64,000 nucleotides of DNA from Tubulanus polymorphus (taxonomy: Eukaryota; Animalia; Nemertea), in the NCBI RefSeq assembly GCF_964204645.1, contig NC_134030.1:15438110-15502109 (forward strand). The letters are read 5' to 3'. Position numbers and translations under genes: made by a program. How positions within the stretch are numbered: position 1 is the first letter of the stretch; each line of letters begins with the position of its first letter. The notes beneath the pieces were generated by a model that did not search any database, was not told where the DNA came from, and was given only the letters and a program-made list of their open reading frames with translations. Below, piece after piece: positions 1 through 60,161 of this stretch.

Positions 1-1284
1 TTTTATAAGATATTTCAGAATGCCTTTCTCTTTTTTGTGACGAATCACTCGTTCTACGTAATAGATTGGCTCAACCGGATTCGCAGGCTTATTTTGATCG
101 CCCGGATCATCCGGTGCGAGCACAGGCCTCTCCTCAGGTTTATCCCTGTCCTCCCTGTCAATAGGTGGATTCTCAGGTATGTCGTCCTCAAGCGGCCTAA
201 TGTCCGTTGAAAAGAAATGCTTCATTCTATTACAATGTACTGGGACGGCCAACTCTTGATTCCTCTCATTCTCCAATATGAAAGATACAGAAGAAATCTG
301 TCGGACAATTCGATAAGGGCCCGTCCATTGATGAAGCAATTTCTTACTTAGCCTCTTTATTTTCTTTGGAGTGAATAGCAACACTTGATCACCTACTGCG
401 AAATTTGGAGGAACGGCAGTCCTGTCGAAACGTTCCTTCATCTTCTCCTGCGCCTTTTTGATATTAGCCTTGGCCAACTTTCTGGCCTCTTTCAACTTTG
501 GCAACATTGCTTGGACAAAGCCTCCTGCATCAAAGTAAACGTCCCTCGGATTAAGTAAAGCAACGTCCATCGGCAACCTCGGTTCTCGGCCATACGTGAG
601 GTAGAATGGCGAGTATTGCGACGTATCGGAAGCTGGACTTACCCGATATGCAAATAGAATGGGGTAAAGGTATTCGTCCCAATCGGTTTGGCGTTCATTG
701 CAGTAAATGCTCAGAGCCTTGACAATCACAAGATTCATGTGCTCGACTTGTCCCTGAGTTTGTGGTCTATACGCACTGGACCGTGCCCGTGGCGTATTAC
801 ATAGCCGCGAAACCTCGCTGACTAATTTACTCAGGAAATTTGTTCCGCGATCGCTCTGCAAGACAGAGGGCGCCCCATGGCGATAAATGATTTGTTCATA
901 GAAGATCGTAGCGACCGTCGTGGCTTCTTGATTAGGCATAGCAAAAGCTTCAACCCACTTTGTAAGATAGTCGACAAAGACCAATATGTATTTATTTCCC
1001 GAGTCCGTTGTTGGAAAAGGACCACAGACATCCATTGAGACTCTATCCTACGGCCCTGTGACAGCTATGGGGTTAACCGGGGCCCTAATGGGCTTCCCTG
1101 GCTGATTCTTAGTCGCACAGTCCTTACAGGATTTAATCCAATTTTCAACGTCTCGATACATACCACGCCAGTAATACCTTGCTCGCAAGGTTTCGTAGGT
1201 CCGTTTGTGACCCAAGTGACCGCCAGTCATTGAATCATGACCAGCCTCTAACATTTCCGCATACATTCTTTTAGGTATGACCAA
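1..1284 (-). pseudogene. Gypsy integrase (HHCC zinc finger, DDE core, GPY/F motif) ending in a chromodomain
   Basis: ORF 1048..1284 has H-x6-H...CKDC. Manual translation gives KLLHQWTGPYRIV near 310-345 and YYVERVIRHKKEKGILKYLIK at 1-63, which runs off the window. Confidence 0.9.
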
Positions 1285-1302
1285 CTGACGAGGCCCATCA
1301 GC

Positions 1303-3263
1303 CTATATTTTCTTTTTAGAGTCTACATGGTAAAGAACTCCATCATCATCAACAAAGAAGTAGTCTGACTGCAAGATAATTCTTCGGGCTTCCTTGTCAT
1401 CATCTGGCAAGGTACCATCAAGTAAATAGTCTATAAGACACACTAATTGTAAATCAGACCGCTGGAGCTCGCCCATGTTCACGGGCACAGGCCGTCATTG
1501 TCAGCCTCGAGAGCACACGTGTCAATAGTGTCTTCCATACTATCAGAAATGGGATACGGGCGACGAGAGAGCCCATCGGCGTTCCCGTTTGCCTTGCTGG
1601 ACGATGCGATATGGAGTAGTCAAATTGCTCTAAGTAGAGTGCAATACGGCCAACACGACCCGAAAGTGTTTTCATGGTCTGAAGATACCGTAAGCAACTG
1701 TGGTCTGTGATAATCTCAAAATGATATCCCCGTAAGCAGGGTTCAAACTTTTTGACTCCTGCTGCAACAGCTAAGAGTTCACGGTCCGTTGTAGAATAAG
1801 TTTTCTCCGCTTTATTCAATCCTCGCCCCGCATATGCAATTGCTCTTTCTTGCCCATCCTAGACCTGCGCCAGTACCATGCCGTTACCTTCATCGGAGGC
1901 ATCAGTATATAATAAAAATGGCGATGCCCCATAAATGGGGAAGGCCAATACTGGGGCTTCGAGCATCGCTTGCTTAAGGGTGTCGAAAGCCTGTTGACAA
2001 GAAGCGTCCCATCTATACGGCACGCCTTTCTTAGTCAACTGGTGTAAGGGGGCGGCGATAGAGCTGTAACCTCTACAAAAACGCCGATAATAATTGGTGA
2101 ACCCCAGAAAACTTCGTAGTTCTTTTTAAGTCGTGGGGACAGGCCATTCCTGTACGGCTGCTACCTTTTCCGGGTCAGTAGCGATCCCGTCCTTTGATAT
2201 TCGATGTCCAAGGAAGTCAATGGTTTTGACCGCAAACCGACATTTCTTGGGATTTAGGCGAAGGCCTGACTCACGAAATCGATCGAAAATTTGAGCCAGG
2301 TGAATTAAATGACCATCAAAAGAATTCGAGTAACAGATAATATCGTCCAAATATACTAGACAAAATATCCCAACCAAGTCTCTCAGCAGACCGCCAGTCA
2401 ACCTCTGAAAGGTAGATGGCGCCGATTTCAGACCAAATGGGAGTACCTTAAATTCCAAAAGAGACGAACTGTGTTATAAAAGCAGTCTTATCCCTACTGG
2501 CCTCGTCAACTTCAACTTGCCAGTAGCCACTCAGAAAATCAAGTGAGCTAAAGAATGTAGGTGCCGCTTGACCAACCTGAGCCAAGAGATCATCGATTCT
2601 AGGCAGGGGAAAAGAGTCTGAACGGGTGACAGCATTCAATCCCCGATAGTCAACACAGAATCTCCACTTAACCTCTCCGTCCGGGCTCTTTTTCCGAACG
2701 AGAACGATCGGGGCAGCCCATGGGCTAGTACCATGTACTATCCCCATGTCTAACATTTGTTTGACATGCGTGTCAATAACTTCTTGCATGGCCGGAGAGG
2801 CTCTATAAGGCCTTTTCCGAATTGGGGCCGCGTCCCCTGTGTCAATGACGTGTTTGACTAAGTCAGTTTTACCAAGTTCGTCCGGTGTTCGTGCAAAAAT
2901 GTCCCGATACGATCGTATTAGTTCAAGAAGTTTCGCTTTCTGTGATGGGGAAAGGTCCGAGTCTGACATATCTATTTCCGGTATCCCAATGTCAGCAGAT
3001 GTCTGAGGGTAGTCCACATGAGTGACAGACACCTCTGGAGGTCGGGTCATCTGTCCCGAATTCCCTTCATTCTTCAGGGATTGGTCAAGTGACCACCCAT
3101 CTGTCCATAAGTGGCCAAGACACATATCCTCATAGAGGGTGACATGTCGTGACGCGGGATTCATGACCCGAACTGGAATTCCTGATTGCGTAACGTCGTT
3201 TACTGACCTTGCACTCATAAGATCATGTGCCCTTAATTGATTTGCCGGCTCAAAGACTGCCAC
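1303..3263 (-). pseudogene. Gypsy reverse transcriptase and RNase H, frameshifted
   Basis: SPWAAPIVLV, WRFCVDYRGLN, LDFLSGYWQV, LPFGLKSAPSTFQR, YLDD, DFLGH; RNase H motifs YSTTDRELLA and TDH; split over several ORFs. Confidence 0.95.
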
Positions 3264-3287
3264 CGATGCTTGTGTCCTGTCAATCGA

Positions 3288-4901
3288 TTATTTTCCGTCT
3301 ATGATGACCTCACATGAGGGGGGAATGACAGTCATTCGCGTAACCTTGACGGACGAAGACTTGCCCAAATTGACAGTATTGTTGAAGTAAATTGCATCGG
3401 CCCCTGGTAACAAAAGGGCCTTTCTTGCATAATCAATAACTGCCTGGTTTTGTTCTAAGAAATCAGCTCCAAGAATTACATCGGACGTGATACCGTCTAC
3501 CACGTACATAGAGTGCGTAATTTCCAAATTGCCTAACACAAAATCCACAGAAATAACTCCTCTCAGGTCAAATTTAGTTCCATCTACCCCACGGGCAGAT
3601 TGGAATTGACCCACCTGCAAAGGGCCATTTGACATCTGAGGATGAGTCGTAAAATAATCATTCGATAATACAGAGATTTCGGCGCCCGTGTCGATCAAAA
3701 TACTTAACGGTGTCCCCGAATGGCTACCTGTCACTCGGTTAGCGACAGTTGCCATGATTGACGGGGAATAAACCTCTTGTTCAATAGGAATATTCTGACT
3801 AGAAAGAGACCCTATGTCGTTGGTTGGCGTGTTACCTAAAGTCGTCGTAATAGGTGGAAGTTGTTCCTGACAGTGAATAGTAGGTTGAAACTCGGAGTTC
3901 GAATCTCCTATTCCAACATTGTCGTTGGTTGGCATAATCGGTTTAGACGTTGGGACAACCTGACCTCTGTCCTGTACGTTGGACATTTCATTACCGATTG
4001 GTTGATGAAACCCGCTGGTATTCGAGGTGACAGGACGATCCTGTTCTTTTTCGAATAACTGACAACAATTTTCCGATGTTGACACCTGATTTGATACATT
4101 TGATACGACAGTCTCCGTATCATGATGATCATTACGACATTCCGACCGTGAAATGTTATTACTTAAATCAACTGACACTAGGTCACATTGTACCGCTGAT
4201 TCGGAGGTTACCGGGTACTTATACTGATCAGGAGTGCGTTCGTGACAATTCAATTGAGACTTCTTATCTCTAAAAAGGTCATCTTCTGCCGAATCCGTCG
4301 GACCATTAACCCCTCTAGGGTGTAACCTATCAACACTAATATTGTCACCCGAGCACGCCATATCTGCACGTACCTCCTGCAATTCAACCGGATCGCTAAA
4401 TGTGACCCTCCTGTGTCTTTCTACAGGCTCTCTAGTAACCGACAACTGGGAATTATTCCTCCAGCTGTCCTCAAAATTGGATCCCCGATCCATATAAAAA
4501 TTTCCATCAAACGACAACTGGGTATTGTCCCTCCAGCTGTCCCCAAAGTTACGATCTTGAATGTCATAAACGTCATCGGCACCCCATGAAGGAGTGTAAT
4601 CAATAAACTTATTTAAATGTAAAGGTTCATTGTCATCTAAGTAATCTGCATTACAGTTCCCCTCAGGTTCAAAATAAAGAGAAAATGAGTCAGCTAGCAT
4701 GTTGCCCTGATCAAATGACATGTCGAATATATCATCCCTATCGTCCTCAAAATAATCATCAACATCATCAAAAATATAATCGTCAATTACTGGACTGTCA
4801 TCGTCATATCTATGATATGAATATGAGTCGTCCCACCAAAAATCACTCCTTATCGCCGAATCGGGCGAGGGCTCTGTTGACCATTCATTGCGCGACCCCA
4901 C
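3288..4901 (-). pseudogene. Gypsy aspartic protease preceded by a long acidic/low-complexity linker
   Basis: LIDTGAEISVL and DVILGADFL motifs. The stop at 3288 is in frame with the RT ORF at 3263, so it is a single nonsense codon. Confidence 0.9.
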
Positions 4902-5972
4902 CCTTGTCGGTCTATAGGATGAGGTCTCCTCGTTTCCCTGACTAATGTTCGATTAGCCCCTTGGGAGCCACGCCCAATATTCTGTGGCCGAAAGTGACCC
5001 CTACTAGCATTTTGGGGACGGCGATTATCACGCTGAAATGCGTCCCGGTTTGGTGACCTTTGTTGGTCGTAACGCCACGTCGGGCAATTCCTGGCGTAAT
5101 GACCAGGGGCGTGACATTGAAAGCACGCCACCTGGCCATCCTGTGACCTTTGTGACGGGCGGCTTTCGCTATAAAATGTGGCTCTATCATTCCACTGAGT
5201 AGGGCAGACTTCTGGATGTCCATAATTTGGCGGAACATGTCCCGTAATTCAGCCATAACGTCACCCATCGCTTTATTTGGTTCGGTCCCAATTTGCGATA
5301 CCTTGGGAGACGACAGAGCTTTACGTTGTTCGATATGCTCCGCCATTCTGGCTGCCTCCCATGCATCCCTAAATGTCGTCGGACGCTGTGACAACAGGTA
5401 GACAGAGATGTCAGGGCGAGAGTTGTTAATTAGTAACATCTTTTTCTGGTGGTCCGAAAATTTCAAACTCGAGGCCACACGATCAATCTCTTCCGCAAAC
5501 CTATCGACCGGTTGTGTCTCCCCCTGTCGCATCGTCGTCAAAGCCGACTCCTTGACCAAAGCCCACGAGGTGGGGCTAAATTGCGCGCAAAACGCACGGA
5601 CAATATTTTCCCAGGGAGTGACAACTTTGCCACCGGCCGCATCGGTTCCCTGATCAATGCGGAGGTCATTGAATAGAACTAGGGCTGGGCCAGCCAAAAA
5701 CCAATATAATTGCTTCTTTTTTGCAATTTCGTCCCAGCCCCTCTGAACCAATCAGAGACGCACTGACTATCTCGTCCCGTGAATTTGGGGAGCATAGAAA
5801 AATTCATAAAAGCGGTGGCCGTGTCCACCTGCTCGCGTAGGCCTGAGAGGGCCTCCAGGACCGTGTTATCATTAACGGGGGGATGACCCTGTGGAACCCC
5901 TTCGGCAGGGGGTTGCCCCTGCAAGCCGCCCGCACCGTCCTGCCCGTATGCAGTGCCGCTTCTAGTAGCCAT
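4850..5972 (-). pseudogene. Gypsy gag (capsid and CCHC zinc knuckle), frameshifted
   Basis: MATRSG start, LPKFTG, MRQGETQPVDRFA (major homology region-like), CFQCHAPGHYARNC knuckle; three frames. Confidence 0.88.
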
Positions 5973-6190
5973 AATATTGTTGAAACGGAGTAATTCTAAT
6001 TATATTTAAGTATTTCTATACTACTATGTTAAATACTAAACTCGATCCTGATGATCGGCCCAACAAAGCAGCTGTTTCCAAATGCGGTCAATGTCCGCCA
6101 CAGTCAACTCTTCGTTTGACGACGACAAAAGAATGTCGTCAATCCCCTCAAAATTCCACGAAAAGGAAGGGCTGGGGACAGACTGCTTCT

Positions 6191-6844
6191 CTAAAAATGG
6201 CTTAAACACTGACCAGGTGAAAGATCTAATGGCTGGTCAACCGCAGACACACCCAAGGACAGGTCCAGTGGGAAAATTTGTACAGATGTGCCCAAAGATC
6301 CGCCCAACAATTGCCCAGCTGCAGTTGTGTCAACAGACGATGGTCTATCCGCCAACAATGGGGACAGGTCTAATGGCTGCTCTGTGTCCAATGGACGTTC
6401 GGCATCCCCTGTAGGTGAATCAGGTGGCACCGAACAACAGCACGAAAAACTCGAGCAGCCTGAGGTCGAACCAGCCGATGAAGCCCGCGTGATAAGCCGG
6501 TCAGTCCCTATCGGGCTACCACGGTTCGAATCCGTACCCGATGAATTCAGAGTGGGGAAAGAGGGTGCTGAGGGCGGACAAGTGCACCGTATCCGGTCGT
6601 AAAAGACTGCTAGCGTTGGGCACGTGCAGTATAAACAAGTGTCTTTTAACTCAAAGTCCGTTAGCTGGGAATACGGAGTCCCACTATTGTCCCTAGAAGG
6701 TGACCGTGCTGCAGCTATTGATGTCGGAGCTGCGGGTGTCAAGCGCACCGCAACGAGACACCTCTTTCGGGGTGGGGCACCCAAATAACCAGCGCTACGG
6801 CGTTTGGTTGTAACCCTTACCGTTATCGGCCCCGACATAAACAA
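6191..6844 (-). CDS. Accessory ORF upstream of gag; Cys cluster, basic NLS-like segment and three PLDLS motifs
   Basis: 217-aa open frame with an AT-rich leader; PPRKRC, CLYCTC...CTC, QPLDLS, FPLDLS, QPLDLS and a PLDTE variant near the C-terminus. Confidence 0.65.
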   Translation of the reverse strand: MFMSGPITVRVTTKRRSAGYLGAPPRKRCLVAVRLTPAAPTSIAAARSPSRDNSGTPYSQLTDFELKDTCLYCTCPTLAVFYDRIRCTCPPSAPSFPTLNSSGTDSNRGSPIGTDRLITRASSAGSTSGCSSFSCCCSVPPDSPTGDAERPLDTEQPLDLSPLLADRPSSVDTTAAGQLLGGSLGTSVQIFPLDLSLGVSAVDQPLDLSPGQCLSHF

Positions 6845-6912
6845 TTGATAATAATATTAATAGAAAGAAAATGTATGATCATCAGTGTTAAGCAATCTAG
6901 AATCCCTCAAAG

Positions 6913-7230
6913 TCACTCAAAGTAGCCGTATACCCGCGACCTGTCGGCTACCAATATGTTGTGATCAGGGATATCGCACAAACTAAAATCCCCCTGATCC
7001 CAGAAAGACGTATCGCTATCGGTTAATCCACCGGGTGGAGGGTTCGAATCCCTCACTGGCTGTCCCACAGCCCCGACGGTGGTGGTACCTTTGGTGCTGG
7101 TTGGGTTCGATTCCCACAGCGGCTCCCTTAGATGGGCCGGTATTTCCCACCTAGACTTGGGAGCTGGCGAAAGTGTATGTGTTTTATAAACCGTAGCCCC
7201 GCAGTGACCACACTTCAACCCAACCGACAT
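6913..7230 (-). CDS. Accessory ORF (CxxC plus EPLWESNP), paralog of 7430..7972
   Basis: Likely start MSVGLKCGHCGA after an AT-rich leader; WEIPAHLREPLWESNP matches FEIPEEHREPLWDSNP in the neighbouring ORF. Confidence 0.6.
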   Translation of the reverse strand: MSVGLKCGHCGATVYKTHTLSPAPKSRWEIPAHLREPLWESNPTSTKGTTTVGAVGQPVRDSNPPPGGLTDSDTSFWDQGDFSLCDIPDHNILVADRSRVYGYFE

Positions 7231-7429
7231 ATAAAACAATAGTGAAATATTAAAATAGCAAACCAATTATAAATTAAATTTGGTTGTATAATAATTAAAT
7301 CATTAATCGATAATTAAATACTTAAATGATAATATTAAACCAATTTAAAAATAGTAATAAATAATTAATTAACAATTAAATACTTGAATGATAATATTAA
7401 GAAAATTGACGCCCTCTAGCCAACTCTAT

Positions 7430-7972
7430 TTAAGCTGGGCAAAGAAAATAACCATTCGCGTCTTTATCCCCAAAAATGAAGTCGTTCGGGTTCGCGAAAT
7501 CCCGAAAAAAGTGTACCCAGAACGGGTCGAACTTGTCTGGCACCTTAACCAGCCGTACTCTGCGCCGGCGTTCCGAGGGGTTCAAATCCCCAAAGGTGAC
7601 CAGAGCTGGCGCCTCGTGCTGTGTAGCACGTTGGTTTGGTTCCCACAAGGGCTCAGCGGAGGCGACCGAGGTGAGCGGTGGGTTCGTATCCCACAATAGC
7701 TCCTGATTATCTTCAATCAAACCCAATGCCTTTGGTATCGGTGGGTTAGAATCCCACAAAGGCTCCCGGTGCTCTTCCGGTATTTCGAAAGGCTTAATCG
7801 GTGGGTTCGAATCCCACAATGGTTCCCGATACTCCTCCGGGATCTGAAATGGTCGTGCACGGGGTGGGTTCGAATCCCACAATGCCTGTGTCGGCCTGTT
7901 TACTGGAGTGCGGCGCTTCTTTGAGAAAGCGTTCTTCGCACCACAGTGTGAACAAATAAAAATTCGAACCAT
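7430..7972 (-). CDS. Accessory ORF (CxxC plus tandem EPLWDSNPP repeats)
   Basis: 180-aa ORF MVRIFICSHCGA..., about five 20-21-aa repeats, first substantial ORF after the PBS. Confidence 0.65.
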   Translation of the reverse strand: MVRIFICSHCGAKNAFSKKRRTPVNRPTQALWDSNPPRARPFQIPEEYREPLWDSNPPIKPFEIPEEHREPLWDSNPPIPKALGLIEDNQELLWDTNPPLTSVASAEPLWEPNQRATQHEAPALVTFGDLNPSERRRRVRLVKVPDKFDPFWVHFFRDFANPNDFIFGDKDANGYFLCPA

Positions 7973-8024
7973 TAAAATTAATAAATTTCAAATAATAAAA
8001 GCTTGACACAATAATTAATCAATA

Positions 8025-8038
8025 CGGTTTCGGCACCA
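8025..8038 (-). other. Primer-binding site, tRNA-Phe type
   Basis: Minus strand TGGTGCCGAAACCG one base after the LTR-terminal CA; matches the complement of the tRNA-Phe 3' end (TGGTGCCGAAACCC). Confidence 0.85.
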
Positions 8039-8039
8039 G

Positions 8040-8583
8040 TGATACACCGGTCACAATCCTCTCTTTAATCGTTATCTATAAAATACTTGAGTAAGGCCCT
8101 GGCGAGAGAACGTGTCCGTGCACAAATCCGAATGAATAAATTGAAATAACGGATGATAATATTGAAGATAATATATTTTATTTACCTTGAACAAAGAATG
8201 ATTTTCCTAATCCCTATTGCATATGAATCCCTATCGTTCCGAAGCTTCTCCTGTCCTGCTGTCGACACTCGTCTTACTAAGGTACAGATTCTCCCGATTG
8301 ACTGCTCTCTCAAGATGCGGGTCCCTTTTATAGAAAGAATCGGCATTCTTAAAATACCGACTCTCCCACTCGACTTTTTGGCAAGGAGCAACAACCTTAC
8401 TGTCATGACTGTTTTGGTCATATAGAATTTGGCCTTAATGATTCGCTGATCTAAAATTATTTTCAAAACTGATTTGCTAAACTAACTTTTTCCTTCCAAC
8501 CCTCCTGTCATGACGCGTTGTGATTTACTCACTCCTTGCTAGTCGTTGTTGAGAGAGCAGCTATAGCTCCGTTCCATCTTACA
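8040..8583 (-). repeat. 5' LTR of the Gypsy element (outer boundary tentative)
   Basis: Ends ...GTGTATCA next to the PBS; candidate start TGTAAGATG at 8583; TATAAAAG (~8325-8332) and AATAAA (~8167-8172) in the expected order. The partner LTR is outside the window. Confidence 0.7.
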
Positions 8584-8634: not shown

Positions 8635-10569
8635 TTAATTTTTAGTCTCCTTAAGAACGAATAAACAATGTTGAGTTGAATGACGCTTTTTAAAACCGAA
8701 CTGATTGTCGGTGGTAATTAACAGATCCTCACAAATAAATAAAACTATTTTCTCAAACACTTTAGATATGACTGTCACTAAAGCTATGGGCCTGTAATTA
8801 CTAACACTGGACATATCCCCAGTCTTGTTTTTTGGTATTGGATTAATTATAACTTTTGAGAGACGTTGGGGAAAAAACGAGTGTTGTAGCATAAATGTAA
8901 AACACATTGACAGTAATATAACGATAATCGGTGACGCATTTACTAGACTTTCAGCTTGCAAATTATCAATACCTGGAGCTTTTCCAGTTTTAATTGACTT
9001 TATTGCACGATCCACGTCGTGGGGCGAAATCACGAGGTGGTCATCTAAACTAGAAGAGAGAAATTCCTCTACATCTGATCTATTTCTATCATTAGTAACG
9101 GAGTTAAACAATTTCTGATAATGATCTCTCCATAATTCGGTTATTTCCTTATCACCAGTAGCGTGATCGATAGACGTTGATACAGGTGCGCACTTATTAT
9201 TGAAACATTTAACTTTGTTCAAGAATTGACACGGGTCCTTGGCGTATAGGCTATTTGCTAAAGAATCGGATTTAAAAGTTTCCTCCTGTGTCCTACATTT
9301 TCGCAACGCCAGCTTGAAACGCGATCTCAGTAAGCGCATGCGTTGGTATTCATAGCCTTTTTTTGGACTACCGACTGTACGCCATGCCAGGAATGCTTCC
9401 CTGGCACGCTCATGATCTTCTCGCAGTAAGTCGTTCCATCCCGGTATATTGAATTGGTTTTCAGTATGTGCGGTAATGCTCGATATGTCATGTTGCGCAG
9501 ACTGAATTGCGTCAATGATGTTTCCGTAAAAAGTATCAACAGCGATCAAATGAGTAGGATTGGCACAGCTATGGTCTTTACAGCATATTAGTTCTGAAGG
9601 GATTGTGATTGCTGACAGATTGTCGTCTGTTTTAAGTTTATATCGCGAGATTTCAGTATCAGATAGTTTGCCCCATCGAACACAACGGTTCGTTGACCCA
9701 TCTGTTTTCGTCGATGGAATTTGTTTGACTTTTTTTGACAGCGAAAGCTCGAAACACAGGGGTCTATGATCGGAGATAATATATTGATATTTAACTTCGT
9801 ACTTTGTTATTTTTCGATAAATCTGATAACTAGTCAGAATGTGATCCAGCCATGATGTTGTTCCATGCGCATCACTAATAAACGTATAGGTATCTGGTGA
9901 GAGATTTTCTAGGTCGGCAGAAATAAGACTGTGATCCTCGGTAAAGCGTCGGAGAATATTTCCAAAGTTGGCAGACGGTGACGCGTTAAAGTCTCCCATT
10001 ACCAAGAAATGAGCGCATGTTGATTCGTCGATTATACTTTTAATTTTACACAGATAATCTTTAAATAGCGGCACGTTTTCGACAGTATCGGTCGGCAGGT
10101 AGACACAAAGAATGAGGATGTCTCCACCTGCGTCGTTAAGTTTGATTCCGATAATTTTCGGATCACCATATGATATTCGATGTATTTTCGGAGTTAGACA
10201 TTTGCGCCATAGAAAGGCTGTGCCGCCGTATGGACGGCCAACCAAAATATCACGAGAAGTATCGACTGCAGATTCCCCAAAATGAGTGAAATTGGGGTGG
10301 ACCTTGTCCATGAAATTAAGATCTTGGGGTAAAAGCCAGTGTTCTTGAAGAAGAACGATATCACTTTCGTTACAAAGTTTGTTTACATCTAAGATGTTGT
10401 TTTTCAGAGAGTGACAGTTGAGCGTCGCTATTCTAATTGTGTTCGTACCAGTCGTTGTCGTATCGTTCATATTGCTGTCCATATTGGTGATCATACCTGT
10501 GTTCATCATCTGACATTTCATAGCCTTGCCACCACGCGTCTCTGTTTTCTGTTTTCTGTAGTTGTACAT
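8635..10569 (-). pseudogene. LINE ORF2 (APE endonuclease and N-terminal part of RT), 3'-truncated
   Basis: IATLNC, LLQEHW, GRPYGG, CVYLP, GDFNA, WLDHI, SDHRP; RT motifs KAPGID, NYRPIAL, SKVFEK, QFGF. Ends before the catalytic YxDD motif. Confidence 0.93.
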
Positions 10570-10588
10570 CTCTGTCTTGTCTCGGTTT

Positions 10589-11704
10589 TCAAAATCTTTT
10601 TATGAATGTATATTGCGGCCACATTTCAAGGTTCGTGACCTGTTCGTAATTCCCGCCAGGTATTTTAACCCTGAAGGAGGAGTAAGTATCATATTTGGTC
10701 TTAAGTTTTGTGCACCAAGAATTAATGCCGCACTGTTCCCGTATGTGGTTCGAGACATCATCGGCCGTAGTTCCAGGTCGCAAGCGGGTGATAAACAGCT
10801 CGACTGGGGGCTTTGCGCGGTGCACTCCCTGTATCTTAAAGCTCTTCTCAGTTTTTTTCGGATGATTCGATTTTCGACGCTGGCGATTAACTTCAGTCCA
10901 AGGGGTTGCTTCATCGTCAGTGTGAGGATCAGTCTGCCCATGTTTAACGACATCGCTATAAGTAAGACCGGCAGCAAAGTCTTGCAGGTTCGATTGATTC
11001 GGCACAGGGAATGACTGTGGCCGAAATTCGGGAGGTTATCTTACAGTTGTGCTTTCTAACGTTTTCGTATCCGGAAGACTAACAGTCGCACTGCATTGGA
11101 CCGTAGTCTCTGGTGTGAGTACTGGCATATCATGATCTGGAATAATAACAGTTTTGTTGTGGTTCTCTACAGCACTTATATCAGCATTCATACTGGTCAG
11201 TTGGAGTTGGAGCGAAGTTATAGTCTTTTGAAGGTCTTTCATTTGTTGTGATAGCGAAGAGACGTCCGTGTGACGTCCATCTAGTTTTGGTAGTTTAAGT
11301 CGCTCACTGAGGAAACTCGGTAGAATATTTTTATCAGTCGATACAATCAGTAGAAACATATCTTCTAGATTTTTAAGGGACTTATTCGGGCCCTGGCGTT
11401 TCCTAATTCGCGTTTCCGCTGGGTCAGTTTCACAGACTTTTAATAGAATCGATTTTGCTAGTTCAATCTCAGTATCCGAAAAAGAATCGACGCACATTTT
11501 GACCAATACGTCCTGTTTGAATGTGTCAAGGTTATTGTAGAGAAAGCATAACAGATCATTTACTATAATGTTTCCGGTCCTAATATTGTTGCATAGGTGA
11601 CATGAGTGCGTGTCATTGTTCCGCAGTTCAGCAGATTCTTCTTGCCCGTTTGGACAGGGGCAGTTAAGAATTGCTGCATTGCCGTTGCAGGTAACAGTTG
11701 TCAT
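10589..11704 (-). pseudogene. LINE ORF1 (CR1/L2-group type) with one in-frame stop at 11036
   Basis: SFSDTEIELAKSIL...RKRQG motif, coiled coil, RRM-like ELFITRL...YSSFRV...WP...IKRF. The two ORFs are in frame and lie directly upstream of ORF2. Confidence 0.85.
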
Positions 11705-13652: not shown

Positions 13653-15801
13653 CGGTTCCTGAACTTCGCTGAAAAAGCTGAAACACTGAAAAGCCGAACC
13701 GCTGAAATAAAAACGCTGAAATTTCAGGGAATTTCTGAAAAACGCTGAAATTTCAGGGAATTCCCGAAAAACGCTGAAATCGTGCGAGGTACCGACAATA
13801 CACGTTTTGAAATGTTTTCCGGGCCGGTGTCCGCTGAGGAGTCCTGAACCGTGTTTTATGCTCTAGCTTCGGTTACAGAGACATGCCTTAAGGTCGTCGT
13901 CATGATCGACTTGATCGATTGCGGATTGCGTGGATTGTTAGATGTGTTTTTTGCCATAGTTTTATGTGCATATACCGGTACGATCTAACAATGAAGTTAG
14001 CACTTCATTTGAATAAATTCTTAATTACAGTAATATTAATTCACAATATTTTTTCTTATGTTTGGTGATTTCTTGCAACTTATCATTGCCAAGTCTCATA
14101 CAAGAAGTAGCTGAATGAAAGTACAGTTAGGCTGAACCTGATAACCCAAATTAAGTGCTAGCATGGAACTAAAGATTATTTTGATTCTATTTTCGGTGTC
14201 ATTGAAATTCGTTAATAAAGGTTCAACCGTCATAGTATACTGTACTTAGCATTGCTACGATTGGGTGCCATATTTCTACAATTTCTACAAGGAGGAAGGA
14301 GTCTTTAAGTGTCTTTGTTCCCTGGTAGGGTACGGGGTAAAACCTGGTTTACTTTCTCTTTCGACTTGCCGGAGACTACTATCTGCAATGTATTGCATGC
14401 TTTGATTTGTCTGGCCTATAGGAGTCGAACGATATTTTCCCATACACAGGCTTGGCTTTAGTGTAGATGAAGGCTAGGCACTGCACATTGTGGATTGACT
14501 GGAACTCTTAACTCACAAAATTAAACGAGTCAACAAGAAAGATCCAATAATTGGACGTTTGTCTAACTATATTATTTAACAGCTTGAAATAATACATAAC
14601 ACATTCTGCAAGAGTACACAAAGGAAATCAGTTCTTACATTATATCAGAATCAATAGTTCGCTTAACTCTGGCTAGAATTCTGGTTCCATTGCTTCATAT
14701 TCTAATGAAATCCACTAGCATACTTTAGAATATCGCTTAGCTTAAGACTAAAAATTTGGTACCAGGAAACAGGGAAGAAAAAGTGGGTGTACTGTACATT
14801 CGCAATTGACTTATTTCTCTCTGGTTGAATAAAGTTATTATTGAAATAGCATTCGAATAGCCATTTTAAAATTTTTTAAAATTGTGTCGTTCAGCTATCC
14901 TGCTGCAAATACCGCAGTTGAAGTTTACTGGTGCCAGTTGATTTCTCAGTATCTCAAAAAATTTGCACATTCTAAAGCCTAGCGCACATCGACACTGCGA
15001 TTGGGGACAACTAGTTGCAAGGCAGTTTTCGGCGCATGAGAGGAACTGGCTGGATACGATCAGTTGCTTGAATGTGTCGATGTGAGCGAGCTTACGATTG
15101 GTAAGCGTCGATCTATCTCCAGTTCCAGCCAGTTGCCCATGTTCTACTTTTGAGCAACTGGCAAATCGCAGTCATATCCGTCGATGTGCTCGCTCTGGAT
15201 CTCGACGATCGACATGCGCCATGCAGTTGCTGCAACTGACCGGTTGTAACTAGATTTCGATGTGCGCGGGGTAATCATTTATAAAACTAGCTGTCAAATT
15301 TAATTTACCTCCTTCAGAGAATACCATGACATAGTCCGTCGCCCATCAACGTGTTGACAAAAGAAAAGTTGCTTCATGTTTTATACATGAACGTTCAAAT
15401 AAGATATTTTGCGTCTTGCAGGGAATATTGAGCATAGTGTTTAAGTTGGCTTGCACGGTTTGTTGATGGGTTTTCCTCATTATGCTGCCTGTATGCATTA
15501 AAAATCCGGATTTCAAGCGAATTAATTTGTCCAACAAGTGGCCCTCTAGAAGTATACTCCACACATACTGTCCATGCATGTCTCTGTAACCGAAGGTAGA
15601 GACTAAAACACGGTTCAGGACTCGGCAGCAGACACCGGCCCGGAAAATATTTCAAAACGTGTATTGTTGGTACATAGCACGATTTCAGCGTTTTTCGGGA
15701 ATTCCCTGAAATTTCGGCGTTTTGCAGAAATTCCCTGAAATTTCAGCGTTTTTATTTCAGCGTTTCAGTGATTCAGCCTTTTCAGCGAAGTTCAGGAACC
15801 G
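13653..15801. mobile_element. Non-autonomous Mutator/MULE-like TIR element
   Basis: ~230-bp TIRs (CGGTTCCTGAACTTCGCTGAAAA ... TTTTCAGCGAAGTTCAGGAACCG) and a perfect 9-bp TSD CTGTGTAAA at 13644-13652 and 15802-15810; no transposase ORF. Confidence 0.9.
14981..15267. mobile_element. Small MITE-like insert nested in the MULE element
   Basis: Inverted GCGCACATCGA / TCGATGTGCGC ends and internal CAGTTGC/GCAACTG repeats. Confidence 0.5.
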
Positions 15802-20415: not shown

Positions 20416-21189
20416 CTATCTACACTGTAAATTACTTTTTTAAATCATGATCAGGCATACAATAACCGACCGGGTGTTTGAACTTTTCCGAATCACAAAA
20501 TCACAATCGGTTGGAAATACGCTGATTAATAAAATTTACTGACGGGACATTCTACCGCTATAATGAAGCTATTTCTCAGTGCGTTTAGCCCGTTCGCGGT
20601 TTTGAATGCGTTATCCTCTTAATTGTTAGGACTAATATTTTACATCCATATGTATAAATAGTAGTGTAGCCATGGAACGACCCTATGATGGCACGAAAAA
20701 AAACAATGTAGTGTTATCTAACCGTCAATCATTACGTCGTATAGTTTTAAAAGTTGGACCGTTCCGTCTATCTCAATTGCAAATTTTATATATTTTTTTT
20801 GCATACATTTGGCTACTAATTGTTTAAGTGACTTGATCGAATTCGGCGATATTCGAACACCGTAACAGACCGGGCAGCTATATAAATGAACTGATTACAA
20901 ATTTTATTGCGATTTACAAAATGACGGAGAAACATCATGCTTTAGCGTAAGTTATAAAATGTTATGGCCCTCTCTTAAAGAGAATTCAAATTTAAAGAGA
21001 GAAGGTGTCCGCAGAATATCTAAAATATTTATTCCCTGTATTTCCAGTCATTATACGACTTTCTTTGTTTGTGCGTTTATTTCTTTTAAAAATAATACTC
21101 ATTATCCCGGGAGTCGGACAATATTACAAATGGCGTCCCTATCGATAAGAACTTATGCATGCACGTCATCAACCATTTTTTTGTAAGAT

Positions 21190-23280
21190 AAATGGCATCT
21201 GCAATTATAACTAGTATAGGATTGGCAATTGTTAACGCTTTAGCATTTAAAGGTCGTGGTTATTTATTTAAACATATTGATAAAAATGGTTCATTAACCG
21301 AGCAAAAAGACATAATTAATTAGAAAAATATAATAAAGCAGCAGAAGAATGTAGAGAAAAAAGACAAAATTATTGAGATTATATTAGTAAAGAATTATAG
21401 AATCAGAAAATTTCACATAGAGACTTCATCAGTTGATGAAGCGATGAGTTTATAAAATCAATATTTAAATCAGTAACAAATCGTGAAAAATTACATTTGT
21501 ACGAACCTAAATTATCAGATTATTATACACTGAGTAAAGAAAAACAACAATATGAAATAATTTGGATTTTAGGTGGAACAATTATTGTTATATTTGTTGC
21601 TTATAAATTTACTAATAAGTAATTTTTTTCACAATATAAATGGAAGATAAAATTGATGGGGTTAATATTATTCCTCATGATATAGATAAATCTAAATTAA
21701 AATCATATTTAGAAAAACAAATATTAGAATTTGAAATACATTTGAAAGTTAAAAAGAGAAAATATTTAAAAAGTAAAATTATATATTATTTCATTATTAG
21801 TGATTCTGTTACAGTTAGTTCTGTATTAACATTTTTAGCAATACTCAGTCCATTAACACATTAGGTACATCAATTGGCGTTTTAGGTTTAGGTTCTAGTG
21901 TTTTAATCGGAATAAGTTCAAAAATTAAGCATAAAAAGTAATAAAGAAAAAATAAAATCTGATATAAAAGAAATTAATGAATAAGAAAATGCATTAGATT
22001 ATATAATTAGTTTAAATTGAAATATAACAATTGAAGAACACGATAAATTATTTAAAGAATTAATTAATTATTGACTTTTTTATTATATAAATGGTAGATA
22101 ATGTTTATTATGCAACAACAGGATGTGGAAGAAGTTGGAATAATCATTTAAGTAAATTAGATGAAAATTTAAATTATTCCGATTTGAAATGATTTCATAC
22201 ATATTTTCAAATCAGAATTATTTTAAATGACTTAGAATGTCCCTTACAGGGATCAAAATATTTTAATGAAATAAATAACGATATTAACCTAAGTTTGATA
22301 AAATATGTAATGAATATAATATAAATATAAATAATTTTGATTTAAAGCTCATGGTAAATTGCATGGTGTTGGTGAACAGAATGAAATAATGAGTATCAAT
22401 TATATGCACGTCATAATTATAAAATTGATAATGATAATGGTTGGATTAATTGTATTTTAGAAAATAGTGAAGGTTTTACAAAATCGGGCATACAGCGAAT
22501 AAAGCAATCTATTAGAATATATCTTATTTGCATATTAACTAATTTGTATACTAATTTGTATATTAGGATCACAATTTTAAAGATCACCAATAGTTGGAAA
22601 TAATAATACCTCATTTGATACAAAAACACAATTTGAAATTCTATTTGAAGATGCAATTCATAATGATAAAAATATATCAATTCCAGAAAATATAGTAAGA
22701 TATCAAAATTGTTTAGATAAATCTCATGTAAGATTAAATTATTGTATAGGGCTTAATCCATTAATTATATCTAATGATTTAGTTTTGAAAATAGAAAATA
22801 TGATTGGGTATAATAATTTGATTAAGACTGCCGGAATGAATAATAAATTTGGATTAAATTATATTAATAAAAATACTGCTCCGAAATTAATGGAAGAAAA
22901 TAAAAACGTATTCAATCAACTGAAATTAAAACTCAAAATAACAAATTAAATGATAATAATTTTAAACCAGATTGTAATACTACAGAAAATAATAAAACTG
23001 ATAATATTTAGCAAAAGTTAACTTAAGAAATTAGAAAAAGTATGATATTCCAAGAGTATGAATTCAAACAGAAAATCAAAATAGATTCAGATCGAAGCTA
23101 ATAATGCAATAATAACTAATGCCGCGGATAATTTAATCAAAACGATCTATGGAAGTAAATATAAAATTCCATTAGACTTTGATTTAATAAGTAATAATGC
23201 ACCTTTATAAAAATATGTAATTCAAGAAGATATTATATTTAAAATAACTTTTGCAACTGTGAATAAAGTTTTATTAGCAT
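21190..23280 (+). mobile_element. Degraded relic of the AT-rich Polinton-like family, ending in a major capsid-like fragment
   Basis: Colinear, diverged homology to 26517-28700 (same MASAII, MEDK and CATTGCG genes). 23100-23260 translates to IYGSKYKIPLDFDLI...IIFKITF, which resembles Polinton MCP. Confidence 0.8.
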
Positions 23281-24332
23281 TGGTTGACGTATATGACGTC
23301 ATGCCAATGCTAGTAAAATGGATCAGAAATAGTAGTACGAAAAAATAGCGCCGACTCTTCTCATTTTCATAGTAACTTCAAACTGTCACTCCGTTCACGT
23401 AAAACATTAGAAACAGCTGAAAATGATTAAAAATGTTTCAATTATTCCCCACAACATAGCGTCGCCAGATTTCTGATTTAATGGTCCAAAAAATTATTCG
23501 ATCGCATTTTTCTCGTTCATTATCTGGTAGATGAGAGCGGGTTAAACAATCGCGTTGCGATATGTCCGCATTGACATTGGAAGTAAAGAATGGGGAACAG
23601 CCTGTTCTGAATAGAAAAAGATAAAATTACGCACTCGGCAGAGATTCGCTTTGTAATGCGCGCCGGGAAAAATACCTTTTATTATCTTTTCCATGCGTTA
23701 AACCACAGCGATTGAATTTACGCGTTGTTTGTCGTAAATTGCAATATTGCGATGGTTATTTGCCACTGCTGTAGTTTTTTGGAATTGAATCGAGCGGCCT
23801 CGGTAGCTCAATGAGATAAGGCGTGATGCTGTTGAATCCACTATCAATGCTGAGTGACAAGTGGGTCCGAGTCCTGCTGGCTGCGAACAGTTTGCGGGCA
23901 ACACTTCAAAGGCCGTACCGTATTGAGGTTAAATGAACAATCCAATAGGAATAGTCTTGGGAAACCAAGATCCAAACGACGTACGTAAAGCCAAACAAAC
24001 AAAAAGACAAACAAACAATCATCAGCCGGCCTCAGTGACACCAACGCCAGCATCGCTCTCTGCGACGTTTTGCATGCGTACATGCGGGTCTTGCAATTTC
24101 ATTCAGAAAAATCGTTCTGTTTTTGTTTTCATTATTCAGTGGGGCCTAACAGTTCATGCGTAAAATTCCTGCCAGTCGGCCATCTTGATTCTGACAGGGC
24201 CAGTTTTTGGGCTGAAGATGTTGTCTAGGGTAGATACATGTATAAACCAAATATCAAGACATTACCTTGAAGCGTCTTCAAAACTTCCCAAAATAACTGG
24301 ATTCCGTCTACGGACGGACGGACGGACGGACG

Positions 24333-24454
24333 AGTAATAGGGGTTTAGTTGTTCTATACCAAAGGTCGAAGGGTCGAAAAATAAATTCTCGCACACTCGA
24401 AATTATTTTTCGACCATTCAACCTTTGTTATAGAACAACTAAACCCCTATTACT
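24333..24454. repeat. 122-bp imperfect palindrome at the probable left end
   Basis: AGTAATAGGGGTTTAGTTGTTCTATA... pairs with ...TATAGAACAACTAAACCCCTATTACT over ~52 bp with few mismatches. Confidence 0.9.
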
Positions 24455-24550
24455 TCTATATAATCACGAGTTTCATAAATTTACAAGCATCAACACGCTG
24501 AGTATTGCGTAATACATGTTGATTCTAGATGGATGGTTCTAGAAAACTAC

Positions 24551-24720
24551 ATTAGCCAATCACAGTTGAGTATTACTCTAGCCAATCACAGTTGAGTATT
24601 CCCTATTACTCTATCCAATCACAGTTGAGTATTCCCTATTACTCTAGCCATCATTAGCCATCATAATTTACAAGCCTCAACACGCAGCTGGGTTTTCCCC
24701 ACTATTGAGTAGTATAAAAA
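24551..24720 (+). promoter_or_regulatory. Tandem CCAAT-containing repeats followed by a TATA box
   Basis: CCAATCACAGTTGAGTATT three times, TATAAAAA at ~24713, disrupted ORF starting at 24811. Confidence 0.55.
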
Positions 24721-25176
24721 CGACGCACACGTGGTAGGCTTATACGTGGCGGCGGGACGCGTTGAGAGTTAAGTGTTATATTCAATTTGAATAAAAAATT
24801 TGATATTAAAATGGAGAGTAAACAAGTACACAGTGAGAACAACAAATCATTCTTAGATCATAAAAGATACTTCAAATGCTAAATCAGTAGATTATAAATT
24901 CAAAAAGTTAACAGAATTAACAATTCATAAGAAATATCTAATTACAAATATTGATACAGTTACTAATAGATATGGAGATAAATTAGTTATCCACTTAGAA
25001 TATGAAGGATTAAAAGGAAATAAATATAAATTCAGAACATATTTACCAGATAGATTGCATAGATTATCAAGTGAAGATTTAGAAGAATTATGTTCTGGTG
25101 ATTTCTATTTCATATATAAGGGTAAGAATGAAAAAGGGCACCATGAAATAGATTTCGAATAAAATATGTAAAATAA

Positions 25177-25934
25177 ATGGTAGAATTAAAAGAATACAGA
25201 ATATTTGTTGATTCAAGAAGACTGACAAATCATAAATCTCATAATTTACTAGTACAATTAGGTAGAGAATTTAAGAATTGTGTAGATTTAAAATTAGTAA
25301 ATACTAGTTTATGTAACTCATTTTACAATATATCGGATAAAAGTATTGAACATAGAGTCTTTTTAATTCATGACAGAAATAAGAATAGATGGTTTCATCA
25401 TTATCTAAAACCAGGATTATATAATTTAGAAACATTAGCTCAAGAAATTAATAAAAGAGCACGCTCAAAAATGGGTGCATCTGCTGGATTTTGATTAAGA
25501 CTTATTAAAAGTGATAGCTCTGATAAAGTAAGAATACAATTAGGAAATGAAGACCAACATCAATTTCTAGTTAAAAAACCTTTAGCTAAAATTTTAGGAA
25601 TAACCCAGATGTAAGGATACGTAATGCTGATGCTACACCAAACTTAATACCCTTTACACATTTTTATATTCATTGCAATTTAATTGAACCTACAAAGACA
25701 TTTGAAGCAACTAAAGATACAATTTGTAGTTCTGGTTTATTGAATATTTTACCATTGAAGAATGTTAAAGAATTTGGAACGCAAATAAATTATAATTTAG
25801 CTGAGTGTGATTTCAAACCATGCATTCCTCAATTTAATAATTTTAGATTAGAAATTAGAAATCACAATGGATATTTAATTGATTTGAATAACTTTCCTGT
25901 AATTCATGAATTAGTTATAAGATGTAAAGAGTAA
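25177..25934 (+). pseudogene. Minor capsid (penton-like) protein, disrupted
   Basis: IFVDSR, SFYNI, PGLYN, FYIHCNLI, IDLNNFPVIHELVI motifs typical of Polinton minor capsid proteins. Confidence 0.7.
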
Positions 25935-26519
25935 TTTTTCACTATATAAATATGAATATAACTGTTGGACCGAGTATATGTTTTGGGTTTGATTTTAAAC
26001 ATGGTAAAGAAATGAGAATTAAACTTAATGATGTAATTACTGATATTAAACGTCAATCATTTAATAATGCATCAATGATTAATAAAGGAAATTATAATAT
26101 AGAAAAAGTAATTGATTTAATCAAAACACCTTTAGAATATTATGAATTAAATGAAGATGGAATTATCGATGATATTAAAAACATATTATCTAAAATATAT
26201 GATAATCATAAAAGTAGTAATAAAAAAATGTTGAAATAATTATCACTAAGATAACTAAATATTTTGAAGAAGGTGATTTTATGATGAGTGGATAATAACT
26301 GGTTTATATAATGGAGCATTACTATCAGTTGGAACTGTTGGTTATTCAATGGTATTTAAAAAAGTATTTAAAATGGGAAGTGTTAATGTTGATAGATTTG
26401 ATATAAATGATATTTTAAAATTAACATTAGCAGTAACCCTATCTAATTTAACTATTGATTATTTGGAAAAACTAAGATATATTCCTCCCATATAAATGCG
26501 TAATTTTTTTGCTAAATAA

Positions 26520-27395
26520 ATGGCATCTGCAATTATAACTATTATAGGGTCAGCAATTGTTAACGCTTTAGCATTTACTGGTGGTGGATATTTATTTAAA
26601 CATATTGATTCCTAAATAGTTCATTAGGAGAACAAAGAAGACATAACTTAGCATTAGAGAAATACAATAAAGAAGCAGAAGAAAATAAAGAAAAGAGGCA
26701 AAACTATATGGATTACATCAATAAAGAATTATATAATCAGAAAATTATACATAGAGATTTTCAATCAGTCAATGATGCAATGAGTTTATATAACGCAGTA
26801 ACAAATAAAGAAAAATTACATCTATACAAACCTAAATTATCAGATTATTATACCCCAAGTAGTGAACAACAAAAATATGAAATAATTTGGATTTTAGGTG
26901 GATTAGTTATTGTTATATTTGTTGTATATAAATTTACTAATTAGTAATTTCTTTTCTAAATAAATGGATGATAAAGTTGATAATATTTATATTATTCCTC
27001 ATGATATAAATAAAACTAAATTGAAATTATATTTGGAAAAACAAATGTTAGAATTTGAAAATGAATATAAGATAAAAAAGAAAAAATATTTAAAATCTAA
27101 AATTATATATTATTTTATTATTAGTGGTTCAGTTACAATAAGTTCTGTTATAACATTTCTAGCAATATTCTCACCATTAACACCTTTAGCAATATTAATT
27201 GGTGTGTTAGGATTAAGTTCAAGTGTTAACCGGAATGAGTTCAAAATTAAATATAAAAAGTAATAACGAAAAAATAAAATCTAATATAAAAGAAATTAAT
27301 AAATTGGAAAATACATTAGATTATATAATGAGTTTAAATGGTAATATAACAGTTGAAGAACAGGATAAATTATTAAAAGAATAAATGCATTATTA
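26520..27395 (+). pseudogene. Two small membrane proteins of the element
   Basis: MASAIITIIGSAIVNALAFTGGGYLF... and MDDKVD... with hydrophobic segments; homologs in the 21190-22070 relic. Confidence 0.6.
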
Positions 27396-27412
27396 ATTTT
27401 TTTATTATATAA

Positions 27413-28793
27413 ATGGCAGAAAGCTTTCCAAAAGCTTTTCAATATGATAAATCAATTAAATATAATATTCCAGCAATAGATTTTAATAAAGATATTTCAT
27501 ATAGAAATGAAGTTTTGAATTCATTAATTAATTTAGATATTTATGTTACTGAAACTTATAATTTCAATGCAAAAATGGAAAATATATTTCATGTATATTT
27601 AATTAATTTAAAAAAATTGAAAGATGAAAAACAATGGTTTTTAAAATCTAATATGAAATATTGGCAGAACCAATTTTGCAGTTTATTGTGCTACAACAGG
27701 ATGTGGAATAAGTTGGAATGACCATTTGAATAATTCTAAATATAAATTAATTCAAAGTTTATTTAGATTCCATACATACTTTCAGATAAGATTAATATTA
27801 AATGAAATAGAGACCCCTTTACCAGGATCTAGATATTTTAAAGAATTAGATAATGATATTAATTTGTCAAAGTTTTATAAAATTTGTAATGAATTTAATA
27901 TAGATATAAATAATTCTGATTTTAGAACAAACTTGGAACAATAAAGATCACTTCCTTGCCCTAAAAAGATTGCAGAATATTGTACACTTCCCATACCATC
28001 CAATACTTTTTATAATATCTATAATAATAAATTAGGTTATGGTAAAAAAGAAACTAAGGATTTAGAAACATTAAATTTCAATAAATTACCGACATTTTAT
28101 GATCATTTAAAACAAGAAAACAATAATGGTTGGGTTTATTTTATTTTAGATAATAGTGAAGGATTTACGAAAGCTGGTATACAAAGAATAAATCAATCAA
28201 TTAGAACTTATTTAATGTGTATTCTAGGTGCACAAGTTGAAACAAGATCCCCAATAATTGGAAATTTAAATACATCATTTGATACACAAAAACAATTCAA
28301 AGTTTTATTTGAAGATTCCATTCATAATGATAAAAATAGATCGATTCCAGAAAATATGGTTAGGTAACAAAATTATTTAGATAAATCTCATGTAAGATTA
28401 AATTATTGTATAGGGCCCAATTTATTAATTATTCTGATGATTTAATATTAAAGATGGGAAATATAATTGGTTATAATAATTTGATTAAAACTGCAACAAT
28501 AAATAATAAGTTTGGATTGAATGATATAAATAAAAAGATTATCACTGCTCCAAAATTAATGGAAGGTGACAAAATTAAAAAACATATTCAATCAACTGAA
28601 ACTAAAACTAAGAATATCAAATTAAATAATAATTCTAAAATAAAAGATTACAATACGTCAGAAAATATAAAAACTGATATTATTCAACATGAAATAATTA
28701 AAACTAATAATGATAACAAATCACATTAAAATACGAAATTAGCTATAACTTGTATAGGAATTGTAATAGGAGGAATATTATATTTTAAATTTT
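27413..28793 (+). pseudogene. Conserved hypothetical Polinton-like protein, frameshifted
   Basis: WQ...CATTGCG, FRFHTYFQIRLIL, GFTKAGIQRINQSIR segments, also present in the relic copy. Confidence 0.6.
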
Positions 28794-28810
28794 AATTTTC
28801 TATTATATAA

Positions 28811-31023: not shown

Positions 31024-31029
31024 TTATTA

Positions 31030-32066: not shown

Positions 32067-32068
32067 CT

Positions 32069-33156: not shown

Positions 33157-33162
33157 CTTATT

Positions 33163-35086: not shown

Positions 35087-35114
35087 TTATAATATAGATT
35101 TTAATCAAAATTGA

Positions 35115-59212: not shown

Positions 59213-59245
<33 letters not shown>

Positions 59246-60154: not shown

Positions 60155-60161
60155 TCTAGCG

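Follow-up and report, generated by a model that had tools for sequence, protein, structure and literature searches.

The window analysed here, 64,000 nucleotides of the genome of the nemertean Tubulanus polymorphus, holds a Ty3/gypsy LTR retrotransposon whose leader contains an open reading frame, ORF-C, with three PLDLS motifs. From the depletion of ATG triplets in the leader and its cover by open reading frames, ORF-C looks like a translated accessory gene. It very probably specifies a real protein and, to judge from its motifs, this protein probably binds the host corepressor CtBP. The explanation that we prefer, and offer tentatively, is that ORF-C is a disordered nuclear protein, likely reached by leaky scanning, whose PLDLS motifs are predicted to bind CtBP; as a decoy it would free the LTR from repression.

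The host element

By its sequence the element is a Ty3/gypsy LTR retrotransposon, present in multiple copies and decayed in the window. ORF-C lies in sense orientation between its primer-binding site and gag, which confirms the attribution of this frame to a retrotransposon in the first-pass annotation. The parts of the element are as follows.

8040..8583, minus strand: 5' LTR (TG...CA), with TATAA at 8332 and AATAAA at 8182; ends read from the sequence
8026..8038, minus strand: primer-binding site of 13 nt, one base past the LTR, read from the sequence
5973..8040, minus strand: ATG-depleted leader, with GC-rich ORFs and AT-rich spacers before the starts
7430..7972, minus strand: ORF-A, 180 aa, with an N-terminal CxxC, a basic KKRR and six repeats of the W-D-S-N-P type
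6913..7230, minus strand: ORF-B, 105 aa, a paralogue of ORF-A with CxxC and two repeats
6191..6838, minus strand: ORF-C, 215 aa, the flagged accessory ORF, with 70% disorder-promoting residues and without a homologue in the searches described below
1..5972, minus strand: gag (CCHC knuckle), protease, RT, RNase H, integrase and the start of a probable chromodomain, from Pfam and the frame map

The inner end of the LTR is backed by the adjacent primer-binding site, which we take to be of the tRNA-Phe type, and by a read depth of ~930, compared with ~50-250 in the leader bins; the outer end presumably lies at 8583. After gag, Pfam gives protease, RVT_1 and rve in this order, and RNase H was recognized by eye in the frame map only. 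The gag-pol region of this copy is interrupted by several frameshifts and stops, and the element runs past base 1 of the window, which ends the integrase ~17 residues into a chromodomain-like stretch where Pfam gives no Chromo match. Among related integrases (39-51% identical), all three that were scanned carry PF00385, a chromodomain after the integrase. A chromodomain-bearing gypsy/errantivirus clade has been described from Cnidaria, Mollusca, and Annelida (PMC13524379; this and the other sources are cited for the parts of their text that were available), and it shares with the window element the invertebrate type of gypsy and a chromodomain after the integrase, which is probable in the window element. 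However, the available text describes no 5' accessory ORFs in this clade, whereas the window element has three. An env gene of the window element, if there is one, would lie past the window edge.

An acidic low-complexity stretch of several hundred codons (3291-4952, minus strand) separates the zinc knuckle of gag from the protease. A LINE on the minus strand (8635-11704; endonuclease and the start of RT) ends ~50 nt before the gypsy LTR, and the gypsy element was thus likely inserted into the LINE.

A leader depleted of ATG

ORF-C is the third of the three sense ORFs that precede gag. The three ORFs have a GC content of 52-54%, and an AT-rich spacer of 15-26% GC (7973-8025, 7231-7429, 6839-6912, and 5973-6035) precedes every start, that is, those of ORF-A, ORF-B, ORF-C, and gag. 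ORFs cover 1,509 of 2,058 nt of the leader, compared with a mean of 80 in shuffles, and none of 2,000 block shuffles reached this cover; an ORF of at least 215 codons appeared in 1 of 2,000 leader shuffles. Over the 2,068 nt from the end of the LTR to gag there are 7 ATGs where 31.7 are expected (Poisson P ~1e-7), a count from which an ATG at 8222, within the LTR past the putative TATA, is left out. None of the other 63 trinucleotides is as depleted as ATG, and block shuffling of the leader gave no sequence as poor in ATG in 5,000 trials. In the controls the observed and expected numbers were 27 vs. 37.5 for the antisense strand, 127 vs. 116.3 for gag-pol, and 37 vs. 38.3 for the neighboring LINE, none of which lacks ATG to a similar degree.

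Three of the seven leader ATGs are the starts of ORF-A, ORF-B, and ORF-C (105-215 codons), and the other four open frames of 2-19 codons. A pyrimidine occupies position -3 in six of the seven, while the gag start has A at -3 and G at +4. The depletion of ATG, the weak ORF starts, and the strong gag start are the signature of leaky scanning and point to a leader built for ribosome scanning, from which ORF-A, ORF-B, and ORF-C would be translated. A comparable arrangement has been described in rice tungro bacilliform virus, in which consecutive ORFs with weak starts precede the polyprotein and no other AUGs occur over ~895 nt (PMC3542737). The upstream depletion of AUG and the weak upstream vs. 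strong downstream start context are alike in both, according to the available description; on the other hand, this pararetrovirus of plants has two upstream ORFs, whereas here three ORFs are spread over ~2 kb of an animal LTR retrotransposon and four short upstream ORFs remain.

It is possible to dispense with a protein altogether. In such a case the ATG-free leader would serve access to gag, local repeats and T-arm-like hairpins (described below) would be selected as nucleic acid, and the PLDLS copies would have arisen by duplication. We consider this improbable. The leader, otherwise purged of ATG, retains three that follow AT-rich spacers and head long frames without stops, and the nine repeats of the D-S-N type (six in ORF-A, two in ORF-B, one in ORF-C) all lie in the same reading register (9/9); both observations argue against a leader without genes.

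ORF-B resembles ORF-A in BLASTP (E=1e-9, 30 of 96 residues identical). One pair of ORF-A repeats differs by seven synonymous and two non-synonymous changes over 11 codons, and ORF-A repeats paired with a copy in ORF-B show 6 vs. 10 and 3 vs. 8 synonymous vs. non-synonymous changes. ORF-A found no homologue among 67 candidates, no Pfam family, and no usable language-model match. The repeated EPLW(D/E)SNP of these orphan paralogues may be an unknown short linear motif. At 7750-7965 read depth is ~190-250 vs. ~90, and many reads continue into unlike sequence, which suggests that other, more abundant families share the repeat region of ORF-A.

The PLDLS motifs of ORF-C

ORF-C is read from the minus strand, from an ATG at 6838 to a stop ending at 6191 (215 codons). 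The first-pass annotation had drawn it as 6191..6844; the ORF itself stands, and its upper boundary is corrected, as 6844 lies 6 nt past the ATG. The features within it are given below.

6755..6805, minus strand: predicted bipartite nuclear localization signal, residues 12-28, by pattern match
6578..6637, minus strand: cysteine cluster C68-x2-C71-x-C73 ... C85-x-C87, a possible metal site, with no Pfam family and no confident fold
6380..6394, minus strand: PLDTE, a degenerate motif copy at residue 149 that fails the PxDLS pattern
6362..6376, minus strand: PLDLS motif 1 (QPLDLS), residue 155, read from the sequence; Asp to Asn in 10 of 81 reads
6257..6271, minus strand: PLDLS motif 2 (FPLDLS), residue 190, read from the sequence; the single variant among the sites listed is synonymous (14 of 103 reads)
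6218..6232, minus strand: PLDLS motif 3 (QPLDLS), residue 203, read from the sequence; a synonymous variant in 10 of 97 reads and a 12-nt in-frame deletion in 9 of 99

The three PLDLS copies and the PLDTE variant noted in the first pass are thus all present. Their placement in the last ~70 residues is right for this copy, where all four fall within the final 67 residues, and does not extend to the family, since the stop shifts among copies. The linkers between the PLDLS motifs are 30 and 8 residues long. PxDLS occurs three times in the 127,996 six-frame residues of the window, each time in ORF-C; its background in 120 related integrase proteins is one in 45,210 residues, and only 1 of 200,000 residue shuffles of ORF-C contained at least three. 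The codons and flanks differ between the motif copies, as had been claimed: the five nucleotide differences are all synonymous and the flanks align poorly. Under random change an all-synonymous outcome has a probability of ~0.006, a value to be taken with caution, since identity was what the motifs had been picked for. Motif copies that differ only synonymously while their flanks diverge again argue against simple duplication of non-coding sequence.

The N-terminal half is basic and rich in cysteine. The PPRKR segment pointed out earlier was located at residues 22-26, and K12-R13, ten intervening residues, and R24-K25-R26 make up a classical bipartite nuclear localization pattern. The cysteines that had been described as a cluster are situated at positions 68, 71, 73, 85, and 87 and again at 128 and 133-135. 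The zinc finger of E1A CR3 has the spacing CxxC-x13-CxxC; the CxxC-x13-CxC of ORF-C comes near this four-cysteine finger, a near match that may be due to chance. In a motif scan of ORF-C no LxCxE, PxVxL, WRPW, eh1, or RRT motif was found. A single-sequence fold model (pLDDT 36.6), uninformative without an alignment, gave no confident fold.

Variation among genomic copies

The variation among copies was read from genomic reads, with ~12% of run X5 giving a depth of ~90 over ORF-C. Reads from 4 of the 10 listed runs were aligned; the library type of X1 and X2 is unrecorded, and these may include the source of the window. Run X7, presumably RNA, gave no aligned reads, which speaks neither for nor against expression. 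Leader reads span 80 to 100% identity, and several copies must therefore exist. The counts given here concern the variant sites listed, 40 of 63 in one table and 40 of 298 in another.

Among the sites listed in X5 for codons 138-212, 10 of 20 changes are synonymous (expected ~30%, P=0.048) and 12 of 20 fall on third positions (P=0.013), while the other two frames over the same codons give 1/20 and 3/20 synonymous at the sites listed. A third-position bias in the ORF-C frame that is absent from the other two speaks against selection on nucleic acid alone. The more diverged reads point the same way (six of eight listed sites synonymous). When both sets of sites are pooled, codons 183-207, which include motifs 2 and 3, show 9 of 12 listed sites synonymous (P=0.002, for a block chosen post hoc), and this block differs from the rest of ORF-C at the sites listed (Fisher P=0.006). 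Over the whole of ORF-C the excess is not significant (12/29 listed sites, P=0.13), as would be expected if no protein were made, and codons 1-137 show no sign of selection (2/8 listed sites). A synonymous bias that may reflect conservation of the motifs across copies, on which the first-pass proposal depended, is seen in the block of motifs 2 and 3 and does not reach significance over the whole frame.

Two of the three variants inside motifs, among the sites listed, are synonymous, and the third turns motif 1 into PLNLS. PLNLS is itself a CtBP-binding variant. Motif 3 loses its proline through the 12-nt in-frame deletion. Length changes are frequent elsewhere in the frame. Of 82 reads, 56 have 3 nt inserted in frame near codon 126, and a frame-changing 23-nt insertion is carried by 6 of 101 reads and by the main contig of run X2. 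Further frame-changing deletions occur in X2 contigs; frame changes are a minority of the X5 reads. The stop also varies: in 57 of 72 reads a difference in length changes the frame a few codons ahead of where the window copy stops, and 9 of 72 have a stop at codon 212. A longer C-terminus was considered as the functional form and found no support: the sequence past the stop is synonymous at 5 of 20 listed sites, with no sign of selection. Shifting stops and frame-broken copies are also what a leader without a gene would show. In our view, held with moderate confidence, the variation fits a disordered protein under low constraint with selection concentrated on the motif block, together with neutral decay in dead copies.

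T-arm-like motifs in the leader

6520..7880, plus strand: nine tRNA T-arm/B-box-like motifs, antisense to the element and overlapping the ORF repeats, one of them inside ORF-C at 6523

Six of the nine contain an exact B-box, and eight fold as stems of 4-5 bp around a 7-nt loop. The 64-kb window has no exact B-box other than these six, which lie within 1.35 kb and all have a stem of 4-5 bp. Within clusters the motifs are spaced by 48-63 nt, and the stems vary yet stay paired. Several changes keep the stem and the box while altering residues, and one copy breaks the box synonymously. Hairpins that keep their stem and B-box while residues change indicate that selection at the nucleic-acid level is present, in favor of a leader without genes; protein-level and nucleic-acid-level constraints may both act on the repeats. 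The array could be a relic left by the capture of a tRNA, or its motifs could serve as TFIIIC sites or as signals in RNA. Rfam returned three sub-threshold T-loop fragments only for the array, and the window contains no tRNA genes. The tandem-hairpin pattern was met at 37 loci in viral contigs, of which 27 match inside an ARAGORN tRNA and none matches the proteins of the element.

Homologue searches

ORF-C matched no Pfam family at E 0.1, DNA-binding families included. A phmmer search of 1.84 billion representatives gave no match at E up to 0.001, and among 1,018 candidates sharing words with ORF-C (lengths 118-377) none was homologous at E up to 10. The pattern of ORF-C was found 17 times in viral contigs, in no case in a homologous sequence. 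Related integrases were likewise found at none of six loci in viral contigs, and none of 10 metagenome loci with a related integrase reaches a leader or holds PLDLS. The failure of these searches to return homologues would be natural if the leader encoded nothing.

Twelve nanobody or antibody matches to ORF-C in the PDB were rejected as weak (E 0.2 or worse). Language-model look-alikes (Znf238.2 0.85, E1A 0.79, TBR1 0.76; recognition 1187) fall below the level of evidence and are leads only.

The first look-alike raises the question of whether the tail of ORF-C was captured from a host gene for a repressor that has several PxDLS motifs, and is either passive or only recently put to use. Its cluster of chordate Znf238.2 fragments heads the language-model list, as a lead only, and the capture of extra ORFs by gypsy elements is documented (PMC4408406). 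The empty phmmer search stands against such an origin. In addition, ORF-C shares its in-register repeat with ORF-A and ORF-B and has one internal ATG where 7.8 are expected, implying that it was shaped by the element. We regard capture as very unlikely.

CtBP as the probable target

PLDLS is the canonical CtBP ligand of adenovirus E1A, Epstein-Barr virus (EBV) EBNA3C, and Marek's disease virus Meq (PMC11209466, PMC2883600). The E1A motif disrupts CtBP-CtIP complexes (PMC11209466), and two sites in EBNA3A act in synergy (PMC2883600). Like the E1A C-terminus, EBV EBNA3A/3C, and Meq, ORF-C carries PLDLS in a small parasite protein with a basic, NLS-like signal. However, those are proteins of DNA viruses, whereas ORF-C belongs to a retrotransposon leader, has three canonical copies, and shares neither sequence homology nor LxCxE with them. 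The earlier label "E1A-like" does not hold as a family assignment (no match to PF02703 in Pfam, no homology, no LxCxE) and should be kept as an analogy.

A parallel in architecture is the host protein RAI2, in which two ALDLS motifs, separated by 21 residues or, in a shortened variant, by 10, polymerize and inactivate CtBP (PMC11187106). From the available account RAI2 and ORF-C both carry more than one CtBP motif, with short linkers between them (21 or 10 residues vs. 30 and 8), in a chain that is disordered in RAI2 and predicted to be so in ORF-C. They differ in that RAI2 belongs to the host and its two motifs are non-canonical, and the 8-residue linker of ORF-C is shorter than those described for RAI2 in that account.

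These likenesses suggest how a decoy could work. Ribosomes would scan the genomic RNA and start weakly at ORF-A, ORF-B, and ORF-C and strongly at gag, and with weak starts on one scanned RNA the accessory proteins would be made whenever the element is transcribed. The three PLDLS motifs would fill the PxDLS clefts of CtBP oligomers, and ORF-C would either compete with host repressors, as E1A does, or cross-link CtBP into inactive polymers, as RAI2 does. Germline knockdown of CtBP in Drosophila leads to over-expression of 13 transposon families and increases transcription from LTR promoters (PMC7061269). Because CtBP represses LTR promoters in that species, titrating it would give the element a positive feedback, with the caveat that the link between CtBP and transposons rests on Drosophila and not on the Tubulanus host. 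A broad block of CtBP could be costly to the host, a point against the decoy, and the TE anti-silencers that have been described act narrowly (PMC6719617).

The same motifs could instead serve recruitment. ORF-C would then bind CtBP while its N-terminal half, basic and rich in cysteine, anchors the protein on chromatin or on a host factor, and CtBP would be brought to the element's own LTR, as self-restraint, or to host defense genes, in the manner of Meq and EBNA3A/3C. All evidence for a real protein selected for its motifs serves this possibility equally, and the cysteine cluster and the basic patch upstream of the motifs suit it. Viral PLDLS motifs are used for repression (PMC2883600, PMC11209466), and self-limiting TE proteins exist (PMC6719617). 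However, no DNA-binding domain is recognized in ORF-C, which favors a decoy over a site-specific recruiter. The lack of synonymous bias in codons 1-137 is unlike what is expected of a folded tether, and three closely spaced motifs would suit, by analogy with RAI2, the cross-linking of CtBP. Recruitment is thus unlikely in our estimation, and the decoy is retained as the preferred reading.

Relation to known systems

Several elements of this picture are already known: ORFs upstream of gag in plant Tat elements (PMC4408406), anti-silencers of plant TEs (PMC6719617), and CtBP mimicry in DNA viruses. The extra ORF 5' of gag in plant Tat/Ogre gypsy elements (PMC4408406) contains plant mobile or transposase-28 domains, its function is called enigmatic, and no CtBP motifs are described in the available text. 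VANC of VANDAL elements is a TE-encoded accessory protein that counters silencing (PMC6719617); unlike ORF-C, it comes from DNA transposons of plants and acts in a sequence-specific way, with no CtBP motifs described in the part of the source available. A search of the main texts of open-licence papers in PMC and bioRxiv found none that describes an LTR retrotransposon with CtBP motifs, although the supplements of PMC13524379 may list this lineage. The words "retrovir" and "transpos" do not occur in the available text of the CtBP review (PMC11209466). Similarly, the same open-licence texts gave no paper in which ribosomes reach the gag of a gypsy element from an animal by leaky scanning past 5' ORFs.

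Protein counter-defenses of transposons are rare in print and come mostly from plants, as far as the available text of PMC6719617 goes. piRNA factors have repeatedly gained CtBP motifs, including PLDLS in Deadlock of D. erecta (PMC12992792). This recurrent gain invites an antagonist on the side of the parasite, for which ORF-C is a concrete candidate. To judge from the leader, a gypsy element of an animal may also translate three accessory proteins before gag from one RNA, implying that other long gypsy leaders regarded as non-coding may hide unannotated genes that bear motifs; the depletion of ATG offers a simple screen for them. A bolder proposal, of which we are rather doubtful, is that an LTR retrotransposon of an animal has acquired by evolution an "early region" in the style of a virus. 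Its RNA of four cistrons would be read by leaky scanning, and the third product would be a multivalent decoy that polymerizes or titrates CtBP, the corepressor that guards LTR promoters. If this is true, ORF-C would be a protein anti-silencer from a gypsy element of an animal, and its target would be a factor that the piRNA pathway has repeatedly come to recruit in new ways.

Other elements in the window

A Polinton/Maverick-like element occupies 53059-63096, with perfect terminal inverted repeats of 185 nt, subterminal repeats of 25 nt, and a type B DNA polymerase. The region 21000-36000, mostly of 20-27% GC, contains a diverged duplication of 5.3-5.7 kb and an rve integrase (32495-32953) and is possibly a second Polinton-like element. 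A gypsy pol fragment at 36111-38120 (plus strand) has the integrase C-terminal domains before RT and RNase H, which is the Gmr1-type order according to the available description (PMC2774666). At 13681-15781, a 2.1-kb element lies between inverted repeats of 206 nt that are 91% complementary.
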